A stretch of 32,000 nucleotides of DNA from Candidatus Thorarchaeota archaeon (GTDB taxonomy: Archaea > Asgardarchaeota > Thorarchaeia > Thorarchaeales > Thorarchaeaceae), in NCBI GenBank assembly GCA_003345555.1, contig PRDJ01000035.1:1-32000 (forward strand), read 5' to 3'. The notes beneath the pieces were generated by a model. The model saw only the letters and a program-made list of their open reading frames with translations. It had not been told where the DNA came from and searched no databases. Of the stretch, positions 1,396-31,225 are shown in pieces (position 1 is the first letter of the stretch; the number at the start of each line of letters is the position of its first letter). The translations under genes were made by a program, and so were the position numbers.

Positions 1396-2442
1396 ATGAC
1401 AAAGACCGACGGATTCAGAGGTAGAGATTTCATCACTCTACGAGATTATACCAAAGAGGAAGTTGAGACTATCTTGGAGGTCGCATCTGACCTCAAGAGG
1501 AAATTCGCAGTCGGGGAGCCACACAAGCTTCTAGACTCGAAAACGCTATTCATGATTTTCTATAACCAGAGCCTACGCACAAGAAACTCGTTCGAAGCCG
1601 GAATGACTCAGCTCGGTGGGCATGCGCACTACCTAGACCCTGACAAGATATACGCTCCCGCGCTTGAGGGTGACGAGAAGGCATACTCCACAGAACGAGT
1701 GGCTGACGTAGCCCGGGTTCTCGCACGAATGGGGCACGGGATATCGATTCGCTGTTATGGTGATCCGGTAGGCTGGATATACGGGAGAGCACATGAGATA
1801 ATCACGAATTTCGCACACTGGTCTAGCATTCCCGTTATCAATATGGAGGACGACATGTATCATCCATGTCAGGCACTCGCAGATATCTTGACGGTCAAGG
1901 AGAAATTCGGCACTTACAAGGGTGTGAAATTCGTAATGTCTTGGGCGTATTCTCCGTCTGTTCACAAGCCGCTGGCGGTACCTCAGAGTGCGGTTATCGC
2001 GGCGACCAAGATGGGCATGGACACCGTGCTAGCTCATCCAAAAGGAATGGAACTCGATGATGACATCATAACGCAGTGCAAGACATACGCTGAGGAGAAC
2101 AACAGCAGCTTCGAAATCATGAATGATATGGAGGAGGCGTTTGAGGGTGCTCAAGTTGTGTATCCCAAGTCTTGGACATGCAAGCAGTACATTCCGCCTT
2201 TCAACAGCAAGCCTGAGCTTGACAAGGCAAAGGTTGTCTTCGATAGGAACAAGCACTGGATCTGTGATGATGCAAAGATGAAGATTGCAGGATCCAAGGC
2301 TCTCTACATGCACTGCCTGCCATGCGACCGAGGTTTCGAAGTGGCGAATTCAGTCATCGATGGTCCACAGTCAATCGTGTGGGACCAAGCCGAGAACAGA
2401 CTGCACGTCCAGAAAGCAGTAATGGCATTAACCATGCGCTAG
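1396..2442 (+). CDS. Transcarbamylase family protein A, non-canonical (YgeW/N-acyl-ornithine-type, knotted clade); substrate unknown
   Basis: Carbamoyl-phosphate motifs FYNQSLRTR, HPCQALAD, HCLP and ENRLH are present. The OTCase DxxxSMG loop is absent and replaced by YPKSW. SWAYSPSVHKPLAVPQ closely resembles the YgeW TWAYSPSYGKPLSVPQ loop. Confidence 0.85.
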   Translation: MTKTDGFRGRDFITLRDYTKEEVETILEVASDLKRKFAVGEPHKLLDSKTLFMIFYNQSLRTRNSFEAGMTQLGGHAHYLDPDKIYAPALEGDEKAYSTERVADVARVLARMGHGISIRCYGDPVGWIYGRAHEIITNFAHWSSIPVINMEDDMYHPCQALADILTVKEKFGTYKGVKFVMSWAYSPSVHKPLAVPQSAVIAATKMGMDTVLAHPKGMELDDDIITQCKTYAEENNSSFEIMNDMEEAFEGAQVVYPKSWTCKQYIPPFNSKPELDKAKVVFDRNKHWICDDAKMKIAGSKALYMHCLPCDRGFEVANSVIDGPQSIVWDQAENRLHVQKAVMALTMR

Positions 2443-2490
2443 TCTTTTTCTGTATCGGGGTCACGCACGCCTGCGCAAGAGCGCCGTGAC
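2443..2490 (+). terminator. Putative terminator between the two transcarbamylases
   Basis: TCTTTTTCT directly after the stop, then a GTCACG...GCGC-AAGA-GCGC-CGTGAC hairpin (2460-2490). Confidence 0.35.
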
Positions 2491-2546
2491 GTGACCTCCG
2501 ATACATCTTAAAACCAGACGTTGTTCTTGTTTCAGCGGTGATTCTG

Positions 2547-3611
2547 ATGGCAAAGTCTGGGAAAGCGAGCTCAAAGAGCCTGTTCGGACGTGACCTCATT
2601 TGCACTCAAGAATGGAGCGTTGAGGAGTTAGAGCGAACTCTCGCCTTGGCGTTCGAGTTCAAGGCAAACCGCTTCGATCATCCTTTGAGGAATTGTCTTG
2701 ATCGCAAGACCTTCTTCATGTTCTTTTACAATCCAAGTGTGAGGACGCGTCAAAGCTTTGAATGTGCGGCTACCGAACTGGGTGGTCATGCTCAGTTCTT
2801 GGAACCTACATCAATGAGGCTGAAGACGAAGACTACTGCAGGTGAGACCATACAAGATGCGGCGAATGTTATGAGCAGGTATGCTTGCGGAATCGGAATC
2901 AGAACTCTTGAGACCGCGGTCGAACACTATGGCGAAGGTGACGAACTCCTCCGCGAATATGCAAAGTGGGCCAGTGTTCCCATCATCAGTATGGCGCATG
3001 ACAAGTTTCACCCCTGCCAAGGATTGGCTGATGTCATGGGAATGAGGATGCACGGCGGCAAGAATCTCAAGCGTAAGAAACTCCTTCAGGTCTGGGGGAA
3101 GGGAGCATTGGTGCGGTCCTGGTGCTCAGTGCAGGAGAGCATCCTGATTAATACCCGGCTCGGACTCGATGTGACCTTGGCGTACCCAGAAGGCTACGAC
3201 TTGGATCCAGAAGTGTACAAGTGGTGCGAAAGCAATGCTGCCGCATCAGGCGGCCGATTCGAAATCGTGCACGGCCTAGAGGAAGGATACAAAGGAGCTG
3301 ATTTTGTCTACAGTCGGAACTGGCAGAGTCCTGCCTTCTATGCGGATATGAAGAAAGTAGGTGTGGACGCCGCCAAGAAGAAAGAGATTGAGATGGCGGC
3401 GAAGTACGATGACTGGATCTGCAACAAAGAGTGGATGTCGAGGACGAGAAACGCATTCTTCACTCATTGCGGACCTGTCGATAGGGGAGCGGAGGTCACA
3501 GATGAAGTGTGTGACGGCCCGCGGTCCATCGTGTACGACGTAGCCGAGAATCGGTTGCATGTTCAGAAGGCGATAATGGCCTTGACAATGGCTAGCCCTA
3601 AGCAGGGTTGA
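2547..3611 (+). CDS. Transcarbamylase family protein B, diverged paralog of A; substrate unknown
   Basis: FYNPSVRTR, HPCQGLAD, YSRNW, HCGP (instead of HCLP) and ENRLH. Probable start is ATG 2547 (track start GTG 2538). Confidence 0.85.
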   Translation: MAKSGKASSKSLFGRDLICTQEWSVEELERTLALAFEFKANRFDHPLRNCLDRKTFFMFFYNPSVRTRQSFECAATELGGHAQFLEPTSMRLKTKTTAGETIQDAANVMSRYACGIGIRTLETAVEHYGEGDELLREYAKWASVPIISMAHDKFHPCQGLADVMGMRMHGGKNLKRKKLLQVWGKGALVRSWCSVQESILINTRLGLDVTLAYPEGYDLDPEVYKWCESNAAASGGRFEIVHGLEEGYKGADFVYSRNWQSPAFYADMKKVGVDAAKKKEIEMAAKYDDWICNKEWMSRTRNAFFTHCGPVDRGAEVTDEVCDGPRSIVYDVAENRLHVQKAIMALTMASPKQG

Positions 3612-3733: not shown

Positions 3734-4015
3734 CTACCATGCGCCTTGAGATGTATCGAACATCTTCGCTAAGAAATAGATAATGACGGCCACAATCAGC
3801 AATATCGCAAAAAACGCAACCACGAATGACGGGCCTGACAATTCATTCCACCAGACTAACGGCCCGAAAATCTCACTGAAGTGTATCACACCGGTCAGGT
3901 CTGCTATTACCACCAGAACAAGAGGCATTCCAACGAGTACACCTGTTGCTAATGCCAAGTATGCTGCTCTTTTAATCCAGATGCGCTTCGAATCAAGCGG
4001 TTGCTTGCTAACCAT
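3734..4015 (-). CDS. Small two-TM membrane protein, paralogous to the C-terminal domain of the upstream gene
   Basis: ATG 4015 with a CAGGAG SD-like motif upstream; KRAAYL...DLTG...FSEIFG...NELS...GAW aligns with the 3' end of 4061..4924. Confidence 0.75.
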   Translation of the reverse strand: MVSKQPLDSKRIWIKRAAYLALATGVLVGMPLVLVVIADLTGVIHFSEIFGPLVWWNELSGPSFVVAFFAILLIVAVIIYFLAKMFDTSQGAW

Positions 4016-4060
4016 CGCACTCTGCTCCTGACTCGACCATGAAGATCGATACAAAATCGA

Positions 4061-4924
4061 CTACCAGCTGCCTTCCTTCGCGCTAAAAGCTTTGAGGATG
4101 AAGTACATCATGGCTATCACTAGGAGAACAACGGACGAAAAGCCCGCCAGAAAGGCGGTTGATGACAATTCATTGAAGAATACAATGTTTCCGAAAATCT
4201 CACTAAAGGTGTGCGCGCCAGTCAAGTCCGATACCATGACCAGAAAGAAAGGTGTAGTTACAAATACAAGTGCAGCAATGGACAGGTACGCCGCACGCTT
4301 AAGCCAGAGGGATGTAGAATCGCGCTGCATCGCTTCCACTGGGGTCGCAACATGCGTTGGGGCTGTCGGTTCTATTACTTTCGTACCTCTTTTCAGCAAT
4401 CTGTCGCGGAGCGAGTCGTACTTGCCCGTCCAGTAGCCCGAGATTCTCTGCTTGCTGATGTCCTCTGTTTTTCCGAGGAGACCCCTGAGTAGAAGGGCTG
4501 AACCAATCCCGGCAATCGCTGCTGCTGTGAATGCAGCCTGGAATCCGTAGAACAGGAGAATGTTGTATGCCGCAGCTCCTATGCGAAAACCAAGCAGGGC
4601 GGCAAGCCATCCGGTGCGATTCCCGAAGATGCGAGAGCGAGTATGAAGATAGTAGGATCCAGCAATCATGGCGAAGAGCGAGAAGGAAACTATGTCAATT
4701 ACAAACCATAGAAACCACCAATCTGTGCTGAGAGCATAACGAACAAAGGGGTTGAACTCAAAGGCTGCTCCATAGCTGTTCCAGAGCAGAACCGTGTAAA
4801 TAGCATCGATCAGACCAATTGGAGTAAGGGAGAAGACAAGATATCGAACCCATTTCTCTTCCCACCAGATAGAGAGCATCTCTCTCGTTGTCATAGTGGA
4901 CAGGTCTCTTCTTCTCTTGGCCAT
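4061..4924 (-). CDS. Multi-pass membrane protein, N-terminal DUF5658-like domain plus C-terminal duplicated module
   Basis: IDAIYTVLL...FEFNPFVRYAL resembles the D-x-x-T...E-x-NP signature of DUF5658. Several hydrophobic helices. AAGCTTTTATA promoter-like element at 4977-4967. Confidence 0.65.
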   Translation of the reverse strand: MAKRRRDLSTMTTREMLSIWWEEKWVRYLVFSLTPIGLIDAIYTVLLWNSYGAAFEFNPFVRYALSTDWWFLWFVIDIVSFSLFAMIAGSYYLHTRSRIFGNRTGWLAALLGFRIGAAAYNILLFYGFQAAFTAAAIAGIGSALLLRGLLGKTEDISKQRISGYWTGKYDSLRDRLLKRGTKVIEPTAPTHVATPVEAMQRDSTSLWLKRAAYLSIAALVFVTTPFFLVMVSDLTGAHTFSEIFGNIVFFNELSSTAFLAGFSSVVLLVIAMMYFILKAFSAKEGSW

Positions 4925-5109
4925 CTGCAACTAATCGGCACCCAAGTCTCCGTCCATAAATCATCGTATAAAAGCTTCCAAATGAGCCATTTGCATCCAT
5001 GGCTGAACTTCTGCCCGGTGGTCAAATCCCCTAGCTGCAATTAGGAAGATCTCCGAAGGGTTCCTCTGCAATGTCGGGCGTATGCACAGTCGCTGTGACA
5101 CGACGGAGC

Positions 5110-20452: not shown

Positions 20453-22246
20453 CTAGGTTCCCTTGTATACTGCGTCGATATCTCCATCAGAGACATCGAA
20501 CGTGACATTGTGAGGCGGAAGCTTCTCTGTTCGGAAGAACTCAGGTAGACGGTCATCTCGTTCTGTGAAGCCTGCTCTCTTGTTGAAGTCGCGTTCGGCC
20601 TTCAGCACTTTCATTCCATACTCCGTCACATCGATCTTCTTACCAAGGAATGCATCCACGCTGTCTGTCATTCCCTTGAATCCCTCGTCAATGTCGAGGA
20701 CTGCGAACGCAATGAACAGACAATAGCCAGTGGAATCGATGTACGCGGTAGTGGCTTGAAAGGCTCGCGAGAGATCTGCTTTCTTGAGTTCTCTTGGGTC
20801 AGTGACCTTGCCCTTGATTCCAAGTATCTCTGCGGCGATTGTGTAACCTGACGTATGGTCGGCTCCCATCGGAGTTGTCGCATAGGTCACACCAATACCA
20901 CGGATTGGTCTTGGGTCGTAGGCCGGCAGTGACTGTCCTTTGACAACAGGAATCCGTGTCACTCCCAACACGTGACCTGCACTTGACGCCCCCGAGGATA
21001 CCAATCTGCCAAGGTAGGACTTGGGATTGTACGCTTCCTTAAGTGCAGCTATAGCTGCTGGTCCGTCGCCGAACTTGATCATTCCTGATTCCATCAGCAT
21101 TGCAAGCGTGTTTCCAGTCTCAATGGTATCCAATCCGAGGTCGTTGCAGAGCCTGTTCAGTTCCGCTATGTCTTGAAGCACATCGATGCCCAGATTGGGC
21201 CCTAACGACCACGTCGTTTCGTACTCAAGAGGCGAAACATGCATCTTACCTGTGTTCTCATATGGTACTGCGTTGGAGCAAGCCATGATGCAGCCGACAT
21301 GACACGGGTGACCGTACTTTCCTTCTGCCTTGTCGCCGAATTTCGCTTTCGTCTTGTCCACAAGCTCGTGTATGGCTTCTCCAGATACCTTGGCCGCGTT
21401 TTCGAAGCGTCCGGCACTGAAAGCTCTTGTGGGCAAACCGCCTGCTTCATTCAGGATGTTGATGAGCACTGCCGTTCCATAGTTTTTCAGGGCACCGAAC
21501 GGCTTTCCCTGTGGATCCTTGAGAACGCCCGTGACGGCCTGAGTATCAAGCGCCTTGGCGAGCGCTTTCCTACCACTCTCGAAGAGTGTCTTATCCTTGG
21601 CTGTTGGCACTGCCCCGCCTGTGTCCTCGCTGATGATTGCGACGACATGCTTTGAGCCGAGGACTGCACCGATCCCGCCTCGTCCAGCGTACCTGCCAGG
21701 GTCGTTGTTCTCGATATTGTTACCGAAGATTCCGGCTGCCTTCATCAAGCGCTGTCCAGCAACCCCGCACCCAATCACGCCGGGTTTGGACGGGAAATCC
21801 TTCCAAGCCTTTGCAATCATCTCATAGCATCCTATTCCGGCATAGTCATTCTTCTTGAGGATCTCGGCCTTGTCCTTCCCTACGTGGATGATGTACCAGT
21901 CTGTCGTACCTTTGGGTGGGGCACCCTCAATAATGATTCCTTTTACGCCTATACGACCCAGCTTAGTCGCTGTAATTCCGCCTGCATTAGACTCCTTTAT
22001 GCCGCTGGTAAGCGGCGATTTCGCACCAACACTCAGCCTCCCGGAGGAAGGCGCAGAGGTCCCGGCTAGGAGACCTGGCGAAACAACAAACTTGTTGCGT
22101 TCGCGGAGCGGGTGGCACGTGGGATCGACTTCAGTGGACACGATTGTTGAAGTGAAAGCACGGCCAGCCAGCTGTTCCTGCTCAGGCTTGACCTTCTCCC
22201 ATTTGAAGCTGAGGTCATTCATATTGACTCTCAGGATCTTGCTCAT
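20453..22246 (-). CDS. aor: Tungsten-type aldehyde:ferredoxin oxidoreductase (AOR/WOR family)
   Basis: SVGAKSPLTSGIKESNAGG, GRGGIGAVLGSK, CHVGCIMAC, EYET, DLGLDTIE, GYCLF and ERDFNKRAGF...DRLPEFF. Confidence 0.93.
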   Translation of the reverse strand: MSKILRVNMNDLSFKWEKVKPEQEQLAGRAFTSTIVSTEVDPTCHPLRERNKFVVSPGLLAGTSAPSSGRLSVGAKSPLTSGIKESNAGGITATKLGRIGVKGIIIEGAPPKGTTDWYIIHVGKDKAEILKKNDYAGIGCYEMIAKAWKDFPSKPGVIGCGVAGQRLMKAAGIFGNNIENNDPGRYAGRGGIGAVLGSKHVVAIISEDTGGAVPTAKDKTLFESGRKALAKALDTQAVTGVLKDPQGKPFGALKNYGTAVLINILNEAGGLPTRAFSAGRFENAAKVSGEAIHELVDKTKAKFGDKAEGKYGHPCHVGCIMACSNAVPYENTGKMHVSPLEYETTWSLGPNLGIDVLQDIAELNRLCNDLGLDTIETGNTLAMLMESGMIKFGDGPAAIAALKEAYNPKSYLGRLVSSGASSAGHVLGVTRIPVVKGQSLPAYDPRPIRGIGVTYATTPMGADHTSGYTIAAEILGIKGKVTDPRELKKADLSRAFQATTAYIDSTGYCLFIAFAVLDIDEGFKGMTDSVDAFLGKKIDVTEYGMKVLKAERDFNKRAGFTERDDRLPEFFRTEKLPPHNVTFDVSDGDIDAVYKGT

Positions 22247-27910: not shown

Positions 27911-30900
27911 CTAGAGCAGGTCTCCCAGCACGGCTTGGACCTTCTCCAGCTCTTCGTAGCTTGAGGGGTCAATGAACAAACATGCCCTGACAACTCTCTC
28001 GTCTCCGGGCATTAGCCAACACCTTGAGTCCATGCCACCACACATTGAGAGCTCACTTGTACACACAGCAAGCGAGCTAGGTTCCGCACCCGCCCAGAGA
28101 ACTCCAAGTCGTTCTGGACTATCAGGGCTGTCACCCCTTGTGAACATCATTGAATTCGTGTCTGGTGTGACCGCCGCTGGTACGAGCAAGTCCCTGAGGT
28201 CCAGGGTATTTCCTCCCCACCGTGTATGCAGGGTTGTGCCTTCATAGACACCATTCCATCCTGGATCCACGAAGAGACTAGGCATGAAAGAGATTGGCGC
28301 ATTGGTCGGATTCCTGATGAGCCAGTTGACCAGAAGGATTGGGCTGCCTGGGGCCGTCAGATACTGGAGCCTAAACTGCACTCCTCGGCACACCAATTGG
28401 AGGTGTCCGGTCCACGATACCTCTACGCCCGTCCATAACCCACCTTCTTGACACGGTTTCGCATCCATCTTTTCCTTGTTAGTTTGGGCCTTGAAGAGGT
28501 CGTCGCTCGTTAGCTCATCCCACACTATGGGCTGAATCCCACCGTAGTAGTTGTCGATGAATTGCTTGGGTGCTGGCGTGGGGAACGCAGAACACAGTAG
28601 TTCAGTAGAACGAGTGTTCTTGAGAGAGAACAAACAGCCGCCGTAATCCGGTGATACAGCAAAACTGAACACACCGTTATTCACTCTGAGAACTCTAAGT
28701 CCCTTCTCAGTCCCTTCCGAGATCTTCACGTCTGATCCTGTTGTGCCGAGCTGGAGTAGCGTGAATTGCCTGGAGAATTCCATGGGTGTCCGCACACGGA
28801 TGAGTCCATGACCGACTGAGAACCCGACGTTCGCTGAATCGGATGGGGTCAATCTCAACTTATATGAATGATTACCTTCTATGACCACTTCCTCCAGGGG
28901 AGTACTGTCGTGCTCCAGTTCTGGCGGGCCTGATTGCTTGACCTCACCGTGCCACCCTTCAGGGGCATCCACTTCTATCCTGCCTACGAGCGGTGCATTT
29001 ACCATGTTTTGAATATCGAATTCCATCAGTGCAGGCTGACGGTAAGGTATGATCAGCGGTTTGTTCTTGATTGCTATCATTGGTATGGTTGGCTGATGTG
29101 CGAGGATTTGCTGTGCGTTTTCATACTCACCCCTTATGTCTGCTCGCCATGTCCTCTGTATCGAGCGCCAATCAGAAGAAGCGGCGATACACCATACCTC
29201 AGACACGCATCGTGTCTCTTTTCCTTCGAGCCTGAAGGGCCTGTACATGATGCGTTGTATCTGTCCTCCTGCGAGTTGGATCGAGTCCACACCATCTGGC
29301 TTCCAGACTTGACCTGATGCGCCGAGGGGACTGACCGTGGCGATCCACTGCTCTGAAAAAGCACTGGGCTCTGATGGGACGGATGGATATCCCATGAACA
29401 AATTGCCCGTTGGTGACTCTACAATCCCTGTGGCTAGCGGGATGAACGTGTGGTCAAAGCTGATTGATATGCCTCCTCCCCTGCCGTTGAGTCTAAGCTG
29501 GAACTCATGGCTCTCTTCACTTGTGTTCGTTACCCATACCTCATGCTTGAGCTGCGACGAAGAGTTGAGTGCAATCCAGCGGTCCTCTATTACGAGTGGT
29601 CTCTCGGGATGGCGCGCATGGGCAGAGACGATGACTCCGGATTCGGTACTGCGGATGTTGACTTCTCTTTCAGAAAAGCGGAACGGGCTTAGTCCGAAAG
29701 GCGGACCTATCTCAGTTGATAGGCTAACCGGATTCATGGCACCAGCGTAGCTACTGTATAGCGAGAGGATTCCCCCTTCCCGTAGAAGCCGCGCAGTGTA
29801 TTGCGGACCAACAATCAGCACCTGTCGTTGACGGTCGTCCTCGCCTGTGGAAATCCTTCCGTCCTGCAGACAGAATAGCGGTATGCGATATCTGCCCGTT
29901 TTGAGTTCTGTCTTTTGCCTGCTTTCGTCTTCATACGAAAGAACCATGTAAGCCCAAAGGTCGTGCGTACCGGGGCTTAGTTCTGCGCCCGTGCGTACCG
30001 TGACAGTAGCTCCTCCCAGACCATCTGGAGCAAGCTCAAGATCGCTTTCCGGAGGCGCAATTGTAATATGAGGACCGGGCTTCTCGAACATGAGCTTGCC
30101 AGTTAGGTTCCTCGAGGAGTTGTTGATCACAGTGATAGGTAAGGTAGTCTTCCCGGATTGTAGTACACGACATTCTCTCCATCTCGTCTGAATCTCGGCG
30201 ACCGGCTTCACTCTCAGCCCCGTACGCAGCGTCGACTCCTGTCCGTTAATCTTCAACTTCGTAACAATCGAAGGCGCCTTGATGTACTGGCGGAATGCAG
30301 GAGCATCCGGTGAAAGGTTGAAGGGAACGGACCATGTGAATGTTTTCTTGGCCTTTACTCGGGCGGTAGTCTGAGGGTTTGAGTCAAAATGCAGACTCTT
30401 GAAGCCGTCCAAAGCAACGCTGAGGTCTATGTCCTTAGTTGTCCCGTTCTCGAACTTGAGTTCGTAGACCGAGGGGATTCCACAAAGGGTGAGATGTTGG
30501 CTCACGAGTGCCTTCACCACAAGGCGGCCTTCGGCCGTCACTCGCTCTATGCCAGTGATAGCTCTAGCCAAACGATCTACAGTGACGTGCAGACTATTCT
30601 TGCCGTTTTCGAAGCCATACGGGTAGATTGCCATTCCATGTTCTGTGTAGTCGTCTGGAGCTTGATTCAGCTCTCTTCGCTGCATGCCGTACCATGCACT
30701 TCGGTCGGGGTTCGTGGTAAAGAAGGGAGTGCACAAGGGGTGTCGGAGAATCTCGGGAATATAGCTCTGCATTTCCACTCCCTGACCCTCCGGGTTCCAC
30801 ATGAGACCCATCTTCTTGTAGAGCGGTACTGCTCTAAGGTTTCCTGCCCAGGTGTTCAGGTCGACTCTGGTATACCCTTTCTGTATGGCGATTTCAAAGC

Positions 30901-31225
30901 ATTTCAGTAGAAGGTGCTTTCCCACTTTCTTGTTCAACGCTTCAGGGCTCACGCCCAGGGTTCCGACATAGGCAGCTTCGGTATCCCTCCAGTGTGAAAG
31001 AAGGGTCACTGACCCGACGGGGCGGTGGGTTGTCTTGTCAATTGCTATGAGAATCGCAAGAGCTCGCATTGACTCGTATTGCTTGACGACTCTTTGAGCT
31101 GTGAACGGCACTCCCTGAGTGAAGCCTCCCAGCCACAGCGGATCCCAGCTGTTATACATTTCCGCTAGCGATTCTGCGTCTTCAGGCCTGTATTCTCGAA
31201 TCTCTGTTGTTAGTTCCTCGGGCAT
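27911..31225 (-). CDS. Large (1104 aa) protein with an N-terminal GNAT acetyltransferase domain and beta-rich C-terminal modules
   Basis: IREYRPEDAESLAEM, AYVGTLGVSPEALNKKVGKHLL and LNTWAGNLRAVPLYKKMG are GNAT motifs in the first ~190 aa. No signal peptide. Confidence 0.85.
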   Translation of the reverse strand: MPEELTTEIREYRPEDAESLAEMYNSWDPLWLGGFTQGVPFTAQRVVKQYESMRALAILIAIDKTTHRPVGSVTLLSHWRDTEAAYVGTLGVSPEALNKKVGKHLLLKCFEIAIQKGYTRVDLNTWAGNLRAVPLYKKMGLMWNPEGQGVEMQSYIPEILRHPLCTPFFTTNPDRSAWYGMQRRELNQAPDDYTEHGMAIYPYGFENGKNSLHVTVDRLARAITGIERVTAEGRLVVKALVSQHLTLCGIPSVYELKFENGTTKDIDLSVALDGFKSLHFDSNPQTTARVKAKKTFTWSVPFNLSPDAPAFRQYIKAPSIVTKLKINGQESTLRTGLRVKPVAEIQTRWRECRVLQSGKTTLPITVINNSSRNLTGKLMFEKPGPHITIAPPESDLELAPDGLGGATVTVRTGAELSPGTHDLWAYMVLSYEDESRQKTELKTGRYRIPLFCLQDGRISTGEDDRQRQVLIVGPQYTARLLREGGILSLYSSYAGAMNPVSLSTEIGPPFGLSPFRFSEREVNIRSTESGVIVSAHARHPERPLVIEDRWIALNSSSQLKHEVWVTNTSEESHEFQLRLNGRGGGISISFDHTFIPLATGIVESPTGNLFMGYPSVPSEPSAFSEQWIATVSPLGASGQVWKPDGVDSIQLAGGQIQRIMYRPFRLEGKETRCVSEVWCIAASSDWRSIQRTWRADIRGEYENAQQILAHQPTIPMIAIKNKPLIIPYRQPALMEFDIQNMVNAPLVGRIEVDAPEGWHGEVKQSGPPELEHDSTPLEEVVIEGNHSYKLRLTPSDSANVGFSVGHGLIRVRTPMEFSRQFTLLQLGTTGSDVKISEGTEKGLRVLRVNNGVFSFAVSPDYGGCLFSLKNTRSTELLCSAFPTPAPKQFIDNYYGGIQPIVWDELTSDDLFKAQTNKEKMDAKPCQEGGLWTGVEVSWTGHLQLVCRGVQFRLQYLTAPGSPILLVNWLIRNPTNAPISFMPSLFVDPGWNGVYEGTTLHTRWGGNTLDLRDLLVPAAVTPDTNSMMFTRGDSPDSPERLGVLWAGAEPSSLAVCTSELSMCGGMDSRCWLMPGDERVVRACLFIDPSSYEELEKVQAVLGDLL

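Follow-up and report, generated by a model that had tools for sequence, protein, structure and literature searches.

This study concerns two carbamoyltransferase genes, A and B, that lie in tandem on contig C35 of a Candidatus Thorarchaeota metagenome-assembled genome (2.28 Mb, 93% complete). The first 32 kb of this contig were analysed and are called the window below. The locus consists of the following features, in order along the contig.

1396..2442, forward strand: gene A, a family-A carbamoyltransferase of 348 amino acids (open reading frame and translation; Pfam OTCace_N and OTCace)
2451..2505, forward strand: strong hairpin between A and B (inverted repeat and RNA fold)
2547..3611, forward strand: gene B, a family-B carbamoyltransferase of 354 amino acids from the ATG at 2547 (Pfam OTCace_N and OTCace)

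Both open reading frames are intact and exist as a preliminary description of the window had presented them, with all the motifs it listed. For B, a GTG at 2538 is an alternative start (2538-3611, 357 amino acids), and the ATG at 2547 is the better match to its homologues of ~343 amino acids. The two proteins share 38% identity across 344 residues. A contains SLRTR, HPCQ, HCLPCDRG, ENRLH, VVYPKSW and the loop WAYSPSVHKPLAVPQS; the counterparts in B are SVRTR, HPCQ, HCGPVDRG, ENRLH, FVYSRNW and WGKGALVRSWCSVQES. A and B are real, conserved genes. Their named close homologues are from Candidatus Thorarchaeota, and each family has thousands of homologues with a mean column identity of ~70%. The carbamoyl-phosphate motifs are invariant inside each family (columns of 37 A homologues and 36 B homologues), and in both families little or no variation is seen at SxRTR, the Arg of the xIR strand, HPxQ, HxxP-x-DR and ENRLH. 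Family A is marked by SLRTR, HPCQ, HCLPxDR, YPK(S/A)W, WAYSPSxxKPxAVPQ and long 80s and 120s loops, and family B by SVRTR, HPCQ, HCGPVDR, YSRNW, WGxGALxRSWCSVQ (no proline) and a long 120s loop. In most family-B relatives HPMP(V/I)DR stands where B has HCGPVDR. This departure from HCLP and the missing proline-rich loop would fit a case in which only one of the two proteins is an enzyme and the other a non-catalytic or regulatory paralogue. We consider such a case very unlikely, because the catalytic motifs are so conserved in both families, HPxP is the normal form of the motif in aspartate transcarbamylase (ATCase), and B stands alone with carbamate kinase at many loci.

The spacer between the genes is 95-104 nt long depending on the start of B, and ~115 nt in genomes of the same genus. 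The RNA fold of 2443-2546 has an energy of -42.6 kcal/mol (z = -5.0), and 0 of 200 shuffles were equally stable. The hairpin itself covers 55 nt, with arms at ~2451-2470 and ~2486-2505, and a U-rich run lies just 5' of it, straight after the stop codon of A. It may act as a terminator, an attenuator, a processing site or a transcript-stabilising element.

The best NCBIfam model for both proteins is that of N-acetylornithine transcarbamylase (AOTCase), NF003384, which has a cut-off of 288 bits. A scores 292.8 bits, only 5 bits over the cut-off, and B scores 250.2 bits, whereas reference AOTCases score 427-637 bits. Both proteins are below the cut-offs of the ornithine transcarbamylase (OTCase) equivalog TIGR00658 (280.85 bits; A 255.1, B 209.7), the YgeW model TIGR03316 (500 bits; A 159, B 130), the YgeW-type model NF005538 (453 bits; A 165, B 140) and the putrescine carbamoyltransferase model TIGR04384 (500 bits; A 215.7, B 189.6). 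Since NF003384 lets family A through at ~293 bits, public records call such proteins N-acetylornithine carbamoyltransferase (P0019, P0022, P0030, P0032 and others). We flag this curated cut-off, which admits a non-AOTCase family. The ornithine-binding loop DxxxSMG is absent from both proteins, as the preliminary description had stated, and VVYPKSW in A and FVYSRNW in B occupy this 240s-loop site. AOTCases are defined by Glu92, Asn185 and Lys302 in X. campestris numbering (2015 review, PMC4581275). The residues at these positions are T99, P192 and E315 in A and G102, S194 and E319 in B. The Thr and Gly at the Glu92 position, previously read from an alignment by eye, were reproduced with MAFFT and with a HMMER alignment that used PDB 3kzc and its E92 mutants as references. 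N-succinylornithine transcarbamylases (SOTCases) have A/S/P/V/Q, Pro and V/I/E at the equivalent positions (PMC4581275), so that A fits two of the three and B one. Matches of A and B to PDB entries reached ~92-100 bits for SOTCase versus 194-211 bits for AOTCase.

Trees were built from 154 transcarbamylases, followed by a careful tree of 65 (LG+C20+F+G4 PMSF), with AOTCase and SOTCase references verified against NF003384 and PDB 2fg6. Supports are given as ultrafast bootstrap/SH-like approximate likelihood ratio test (UFBoot/SH-aLRT). In the careful tree, five clades were recovered: A (99/96), B (100/100), a YgeW-type clade that includes Escherichia coli YgeW (99/91), a small family D (100/99), and AOTCase together with SOTCase, from which A and B are excluded (100/100). 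All five are separated from the OTCases (99/95), and neither A nor B groups with canonical OTCases. Branching among the five is poorly supported (A with AOTCase/SOTCase 72/52; B with YgeW-type 43/41). The residues and the AOTCase + SOTCase clade agree with the earlier view that A and B are of neither the acetyl- nor the succinylornithine type. On the public annotation, A would be an anabolic AOTCase/SOTCase-like enzyme of arginine synthesis; B would then be a diverged duplicate. This would account for the score of A just over the NF003384 cut-off, the names in the source records, the weak sister position of A (72/52) and the Pro and Glu at two SOTCase-type positions, but true AOTCases have much higher scores, all three AOTCase-defining residues are missing from A, and the AOTCase + SOTCase clade leaves A outside at 100/100. 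In addition, the genome already has a canonical OTCase, no arg genes lie in the window, and the relatives of A adjoin carbamate kinase and purine genes. Specificity residues, tree and gene context all speak against the name N-acetylornithine carbamoyltransferase for family A, and we regard an anabolic role as highly improbable.

In both trees, archaeal members of either family are mixed among the bacterial ones. Thorarchaeota A and B are each next to Chloroflexota-type sequences, Heimdall/Hod/Hermod B is nested inside Anaerolineae, and Desulfurococcales and Nitrososphaeria form deeper branches. From these topologies, interdomain transfer is likely.

The AlphaFold2 models are of high confidence. 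A has a pLDDT of 88.5 and its best fold match is AOTCase (TMq 0.84-0.85). B has a pLDDT of 92.2, and its best matches are AOTCase (TMq 0.83-0.85) and the E. faecalis YgeW homologue 2yfk (0.85). TMq against OTCases is lower for both models, at 0.71-0.79. The 120s loop is extended in both proteins by ~9-10 residues compared with OTCases and is aligned to the AOTCase/SOTCase loop; a long 80s loop is present in A. The preliminary description had called the pair knotted-type. Phylogeny and fold likeness support this indirectly for both proteins, as their closest folds are knotted enzymes and both belong to the clade that holds all known knotted members. The proline-rich loop regarded as the knot signature in the 2015 review (PMC4581275) has three prolines in A, but the loop of B has none, which qualifies the term for B. 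That A and B are separate families within the knotted superclade, neither inside AOTCase/SOTCase nor inside YgeW, is well supported by the trees.

Gene context was examined with a family-B profile scan of one genome per species, which gave 80 loci. Open reading frames were called, and neighbours were clustered and named by Pfam and NCBIfam. Linkage counts are drawn from 57-61 B-centred loci of many phyla, which include Chloroflexota, Elusimicrobiota, Eisenbacteria, Caldisericota, Myxococcota, Desulfurococcales and Heimdall/Hod/Hermod archaea. A is present at 33 of 57 B loci and lies directly upstream of B in 19. In four further loci (L019, L046, L052 and L090) A's place directly upstream of B is taken by family D, which has STRTR and YAKSW. 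In 27 of 55 loci, carbamate kinase follows B on its downstream side at a distance of up to 1.5 kb. The recurrent order is A, B and carbamate kinase, often followed by two pyridoxal phosphate (PLP) enzymes, one like threonine synthase (288-323 bits on NF006050) and the other a 492-aa enzyme like cysteine synthase/SbnA. The PLP genes lie at L029:13513-14769, L029:11994-13472 and L011:8575-9822 in the clusters and at C12:43302-44279 in the genome of the window. In an evenly drawn set of 251 Chloroflexota genomes only 5 clear family-A matches were seen, too few to tabulate A, B and YgeY by genome. The recurrent neighbours of B in these loci are the following.

Carbamate kinase (over the model cut-off)
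YgfK/UacX (YgfK, 972 bits, over the cut-off)
YgeY (474 bits, over the cut-off)
SsnA-like amidohydrolase
Allantoinase/hydantoinase-like (HyuA-type) amidohydrolase
PreA/dihydroorotate dehydrogenase (DHODH)-like reductase, an alternative to YgfK
Mo and FAD subunits of xanthine dehydrogenase (XDH)
Adenine deaminase
Bmp/PnrA nucleoside-binding protein of a nucleoside transporter
GntR regulator

By their family matches, these neighbours are the gene set of the 2,8-dioxopurine or reductive uric-acid pathway, which was published in 2025 (PMC12507026; bioRxiv 10.1101/2025.04.24.650524). In this pathway the reduced purine is opened by SsnA and HyuA, with 2,3-diureidopropionate as the product. YgeW takes one ureido group off as carbamoyl phosphate, which the carbamate kinase YqeA uses to form ATP, YgeY hydrolyses the second ureido group, and YgeX deaminates the resulting 2,3-diaminopropionate.

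Some bacterial clusters have a third or fourth transcarbamylase (L019:13863-14792, L058:13279-14187 and L060:8953-9963), with an OTCase-branch gene after the PLP enzyme. The row at L060 reads YgeY, a YgeW-type gene, B, carbamate kinase, two PLP enzymes, an OTCase-branch gene and a fragment of A.

Loci of B that lack A were compared with those that have it. YgeY occurs at 0 of 23 loci with B plus A or D versus 3 of 11 loci with B only (Fisher p = 0.03, a small sample uncorrected for relatedness). In single-transcarbamylase clusters of the YgeW-type clade, YgeY, the transcarbamylase and the PLP enzyme are consecutive. No A was found anywhere in two genomes with YgeY beside B (L021 and L027 are among the B genomes without A). 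Four Thorarchaeota genomes without A (G280, G294, G300 and G349) are 97-98% complete, and all carry a conserved CN_hydrolase of the nitrilase superfamily beside B. In Thorarchaeota genomes without A it occupies the place that A would have (L010:9017-9883, reverse strand; L121-L124). This hydrolase has 70-100% identity among the four genomes, and its best match is N-carbamoylputrescine amidase, at 246 bits and below the cut-off. It was not found at the Thorarchaeota loci that bear A, and in the genome of the window only a relative with 26% identity was seen. Enzymes that hydrolyse N-carbamoyl groups and A can thus stand in for one another, a pattern that phosphorolytic removal of a carbamoyl group by A would predict.

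Linkage of A and B was also examined in the archaea. The 59 genomes sampled from the family of the window divide into 39 with both genes, 6 with A but not B, 9 with B but not A and 5 without either. Among the genomes with both (40 including our own), 31 have A and B on one contig no more than 16.3 kb apart, and in 13 A lies upstream of B in a head-to-tail arrangement, with no more than 1.1 kb between them. In many Thorarchaeota genomes the genes are 3-16 kb apart or divergent, and at Thorarchaeota loci apparently without A, A was found ~11 kb away. In one Asgard family (f22) carbamate kinase abuts B and A is nearby; in another (f12) A-like and B-like genes are divergent neighbours. Co-occurrence of the pair in relatives, raised as a check in the preliminary description, is thus seen in the family of the window and also in Chloroflexota, Elusimicrobiota, Eisenbacteria, Caldisericota, Desulfurococcales and Heimdall/Hod/Hermod archaea. 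The neighbours of the pair that are conserved in Thorarchaeota are an Opp/Dpp-type ABC transporter and oxidative-stress genes.

The tandem arrangement and wide co-occurrence could also mean that the two proteins assemble into an obligate mixed trimer, a hetero-oligomer with a single substrate, as had been suggested from the window. Transcarbamylase active sites are located at subunit interfaces, and mixed trimers are physically conceivable (PMC4581275). However, B occurs without A in the four near-complete Thorarchaeota genomes and in the L021 and L027 genomes, and A occurs without a close B in others. Replacement of A by unrelated hydrolases is unlike the behaviour of a structural subunit, both proteins have the full set of carbamoyl-phosphate residues, and the genes are separated or divergent in many Thorarchaeota genomes. 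An obligate mixed trimer is improbable.

The genome of the window has four genes of the transcarbamylase fold: an OTCase on contig C10, an ATCase on contig C48, A and B. The C10 OTCase is canonical (STRTR, HPCQ, DTFFSMG and HCLP), and three other pair-bearing genomes also have strong OTCase-type matches besides their A- and B-type ones. With a canonical OTCase and an ATCase present, A and B come on top of the enzymes for arginine and pyrimidine synthesis. Neither arg genes nor carbamate kinase were found within the 32-kb window, as previously noted. Counterparts of the neighbours seen in relatives are located on other contigs as follows.

Contig C52: carbamate kinase, the only one in the genome
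Contig C67: SsnA-like gene (373 bits)
Contig C67: adenine deaminase
Contig C24: hydantoinase/allantoinase (dihydropyrimidinase)-like amidohydrolase
Contig C24: DHO_dh+Fer4 (PreA-like) reductase
End of contig C12: 492-aa PLP enzyme (70% identity)

Because these genes are scattered, the pathway assignment made below is weaker for this genome than for the clusters of bacteria.

Taken together, A and B are most likely two distinct, catalytically competent catabolic carbamoyltransferases. We infer the reaction direction, substrates and ATP yield of A and B as follows. Each enzyme would run phosphorolytically, converting an N-carbamoyl compound and phosphate to an amine and carbamoyl phosphate, from which carbamate kinase would form ATP. 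On balance we favour, with slightly more confidence than doubt, 2,3-diureidopropionate as the compound acted on, its two ureido groups being the substrates; it is the open-chain compound to which purines are broken down anaerobically by the 2,8-dioxopurine or reductive uric-acid route. One enzyme would take the first group and the other the second to give 2,3-diaminopropionate, with no order assigned to A and B, and the two would replace YgeW, a transcarbamylase, and YgeY, a hydrolase, yielding two ATP rather than one. A has the substrate loops of YgeW, which suggests that A binds the YgeW substrate. Contrary to that suggestion on the order of steps, A and not B is the gene that hydrolases replace. 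The earlier proposal of two enzymes for two acceptors, acting in sequence in ureido catabolism, is supported as the most plausible one. Its description as an undescribed pathway has to be narrowed, as the conserved neighbours fit the purine pathway of 2025, and it is the two-transcarbamylase version that is undescribed, with no such form in the two papers as far as they were read.

Several observations weigh against 2,3-diureidopropionate as the substrate. The pair in the window adjoins no carbamate kinase or purine gene. Carbamate kinase was found in 187 of 251 Asgard genomes, some of them from families without A or B, so its presence is not specific, and it was rejected as a phyletic marker of the pair. 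Homologues of XDH, YgfM, YgeX and YgeY were searched for in the genome of the window and nothing convincing was found, and YgfK-type matches there are partial (33-37%) only. With no XDH, YgfK-type, YgeX or YgeY gene, this genome does not account for entry into the published pathway or exit from it. The PLP enzymes of the clusters resemble threonine synthase and cysteine synthase, not the diaminopropionate ammonia-lyase YgeX. A YgeW-type gene, YgeY, B and A occur together at L060, and A and B are therefore not simple substitutes everywhere. The limits of the YgeY comparison given above also count here, and PMC12507026 and bioRxiv 10.1101/2025.04.24.650524 differ over which ureido group YgeW removes.

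Tungsten-type aldehyde:ferredoxin oxidoreductase (AOR) genes lie at C24:4254-6197 and C24:14845-16719, directly beside the DHO_dh+Fer4 reductase and the hydantoinase-like gene, and another is in the window at 20453-22246 on the reverse strand. Since the genome is without xanthine dehydrogenase, an AOR-family enzyme that acts on N-heterocycles is a candidate idea only.

An alternative is that the two enzymes are catabolic but act on ureido compounds other than 2,3-diureidopropionate. Candidates are N-carbamoyl-beta-alanine and N-carbamoyl-beta-aminoisobutyrate from reductive pyrimidine breakdown, N-carbamoylputrescine, citrulline-like compounds and allantoate, ureidoglycine or oxalurate, and in Thorarchaeota the substrates might be imported through the adjacent Opp/Dpp-type transporter. 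The genome has a PreA-like reductase and a dihydropyrimidinase/allantoinase-like amidohydrolase with no XDH, YgfK or YgeX, the hydrolase in A's place in Thorarchaeota is closest to N-carbamoylputrescine amidase, the ABC transporter beside B is conserved across Thorarchaeota genomes, and purine catabolism has been proposed to involve a ureidoglycine carbamoyltransferase (PMC4016543). In contrast, the bacterial module has YgfK, XDH, SsnA-like, adenine deaminase and purine-nucleoside transporter genes, which are marks of the 2,8-dioxopurine route, and the YgeW substrate loops are common to A. The scores on the putrescine transcarbamylase model (216 bits for A and 190 for B) are well short of its cut-off of 500, and the proposed ureidoglycine enzyme belongs to the ATCase branch. 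Other ureido compounds are, overall, a distinctly less probable explanation, but they are a serious rival in the case of this archaeon, where the substrate might, for instance, derive from pyrimidines.

Returning to 2,3-diureidopropionate, a more specific proposal can be made, although we lean somewhat against it as a whole. A and B would be new enzyme activities specific for the 2-ureido and 3-ureido groups of 2,3-diureidopropionate or ureido-aminopropionate, and together with carbamate kinase would make the lower branch of anaerobic purine fermentation phosphorolytic throughout, at two ATP per purine. Thorarchaeota and other Asgard archaea would live on sediment nucleobases with genes exchanged with Chloroflexota-like bacteria.

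Around the pair, the open reading frames at 346-1236, 3734-4054 and 4061-4930, all on the reverse strand, have no Pfam match, and the first and third have no NCBIfam match either. A gene of ~860 amino acids (neighbour cluster 22) that lies 5' of A in other Thorarchaeota is split between 4-153 of the window, on the reverse strand, and C62:1-2136. As the split falls at the starts of both contigs, C62 probably joins the left end of the window. C62 carries rubrerythrin and flavodiiron genes, which are found left of the pair in relatives. At 27911-31225 on the reverse strand, an open reading frame of 1104 amino acids encodes a GNAT acetyltransferase domain at the N-terminus and shows weak likeness to an Ig-like domain (FixG_C); the remainder has no Pfam match.

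New in this work are the Asgard distribution, the displacement by the CN_hydrolase, the five-clade tree with checked references and the near-miss at the NF003384 cut-off. Two large families, which occur in Asgard archaea, Thermoproteota, Chloroflexota, Elusimicrobiota and others and are now annotated as ornithine or N-acetylornithine carbamoyltransferases, would move from arginine synthesis to energy-yielding purine catabolism. If the favoured reading is true, the route with two transcarbamylases doubles the substrate-level ATP gain of the 2,8-dioxopurine pathway, and the amidase step (YgeY or CN_hydrolase) and the phosphorolytic step would be interchangeable, a trade-off between flux and energy yield. 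Nucleobase fermentation would then join the inferred Asgard lifestyle. Searches of the literature for a two-transcarbamylase form or for purine degradation in Asgard archaea turned up only the two pathway papers of 2025.

Among known systems, E. coli YgeW resembles A and B in belonging to the same superclade and in being itself a catabolic transcarbamylase. Its gene context matches that of the A and B relatives, with carbamate kinase, SsnA, a HyuA-type hydantoinase, YgfK or a DHODH-like reductase, and XDH, and it has the loop WAYSPSxxKPLxVPQ and YPKSW in common with A. The logic predicted for A and B is alike, from ureido group to carbamoyl phosphate to ATP. The YgeW system has one transcarbamylase and the YgeY amidase, whereas two transcarbamylases occur here. 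YgeW has 396 amino acids, so that A and B are ~45 residues shorter, and in the alignment neither has its extra N- and C-terminal helices or its 240s-loop insertion of two extra helices. The YgeW pathway uses YgeX, in contrast to the threonine-synthase-like and cysteine-synthase-like PLP enzymes of the A and B clusters, and the counterpart genes in this Thorarchaeota genome are dispersed. Structurally, both models come closest to AOTCase (X. campestris, PDB 3kzc; TMq 0.83-0.85). This enzyme and the SOTCase from B. fragilis (PDB 2fg6) have the long 120s loop of A and B and the long 80s loop of A, and the YxKxW motif is of the same type. They differ in their clade, which leaves out both A and B, and at the AOTCase residues Glu92/Asn185/Lys302, which are Thr/Pro/Glu in A and Gly/Ser/Glu in B. 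No arginine gene context is seen around A and B, and their genome has its own canonical OTCase. The catabolic ornithine and putrescine transcarbamylases of the arginine and agmatine deiminase pathways follow the same energy logic, in which phosphorolysis of a ureido compound is coupled through carbamate kinase to ATP. These enzymes belong to the unknotted OTCase branch, with DxxxSMG or a putrescine-specific motif, whereas A and B lie outside that branch, lack these motifs and have no companion deiminase or antiporter gene.

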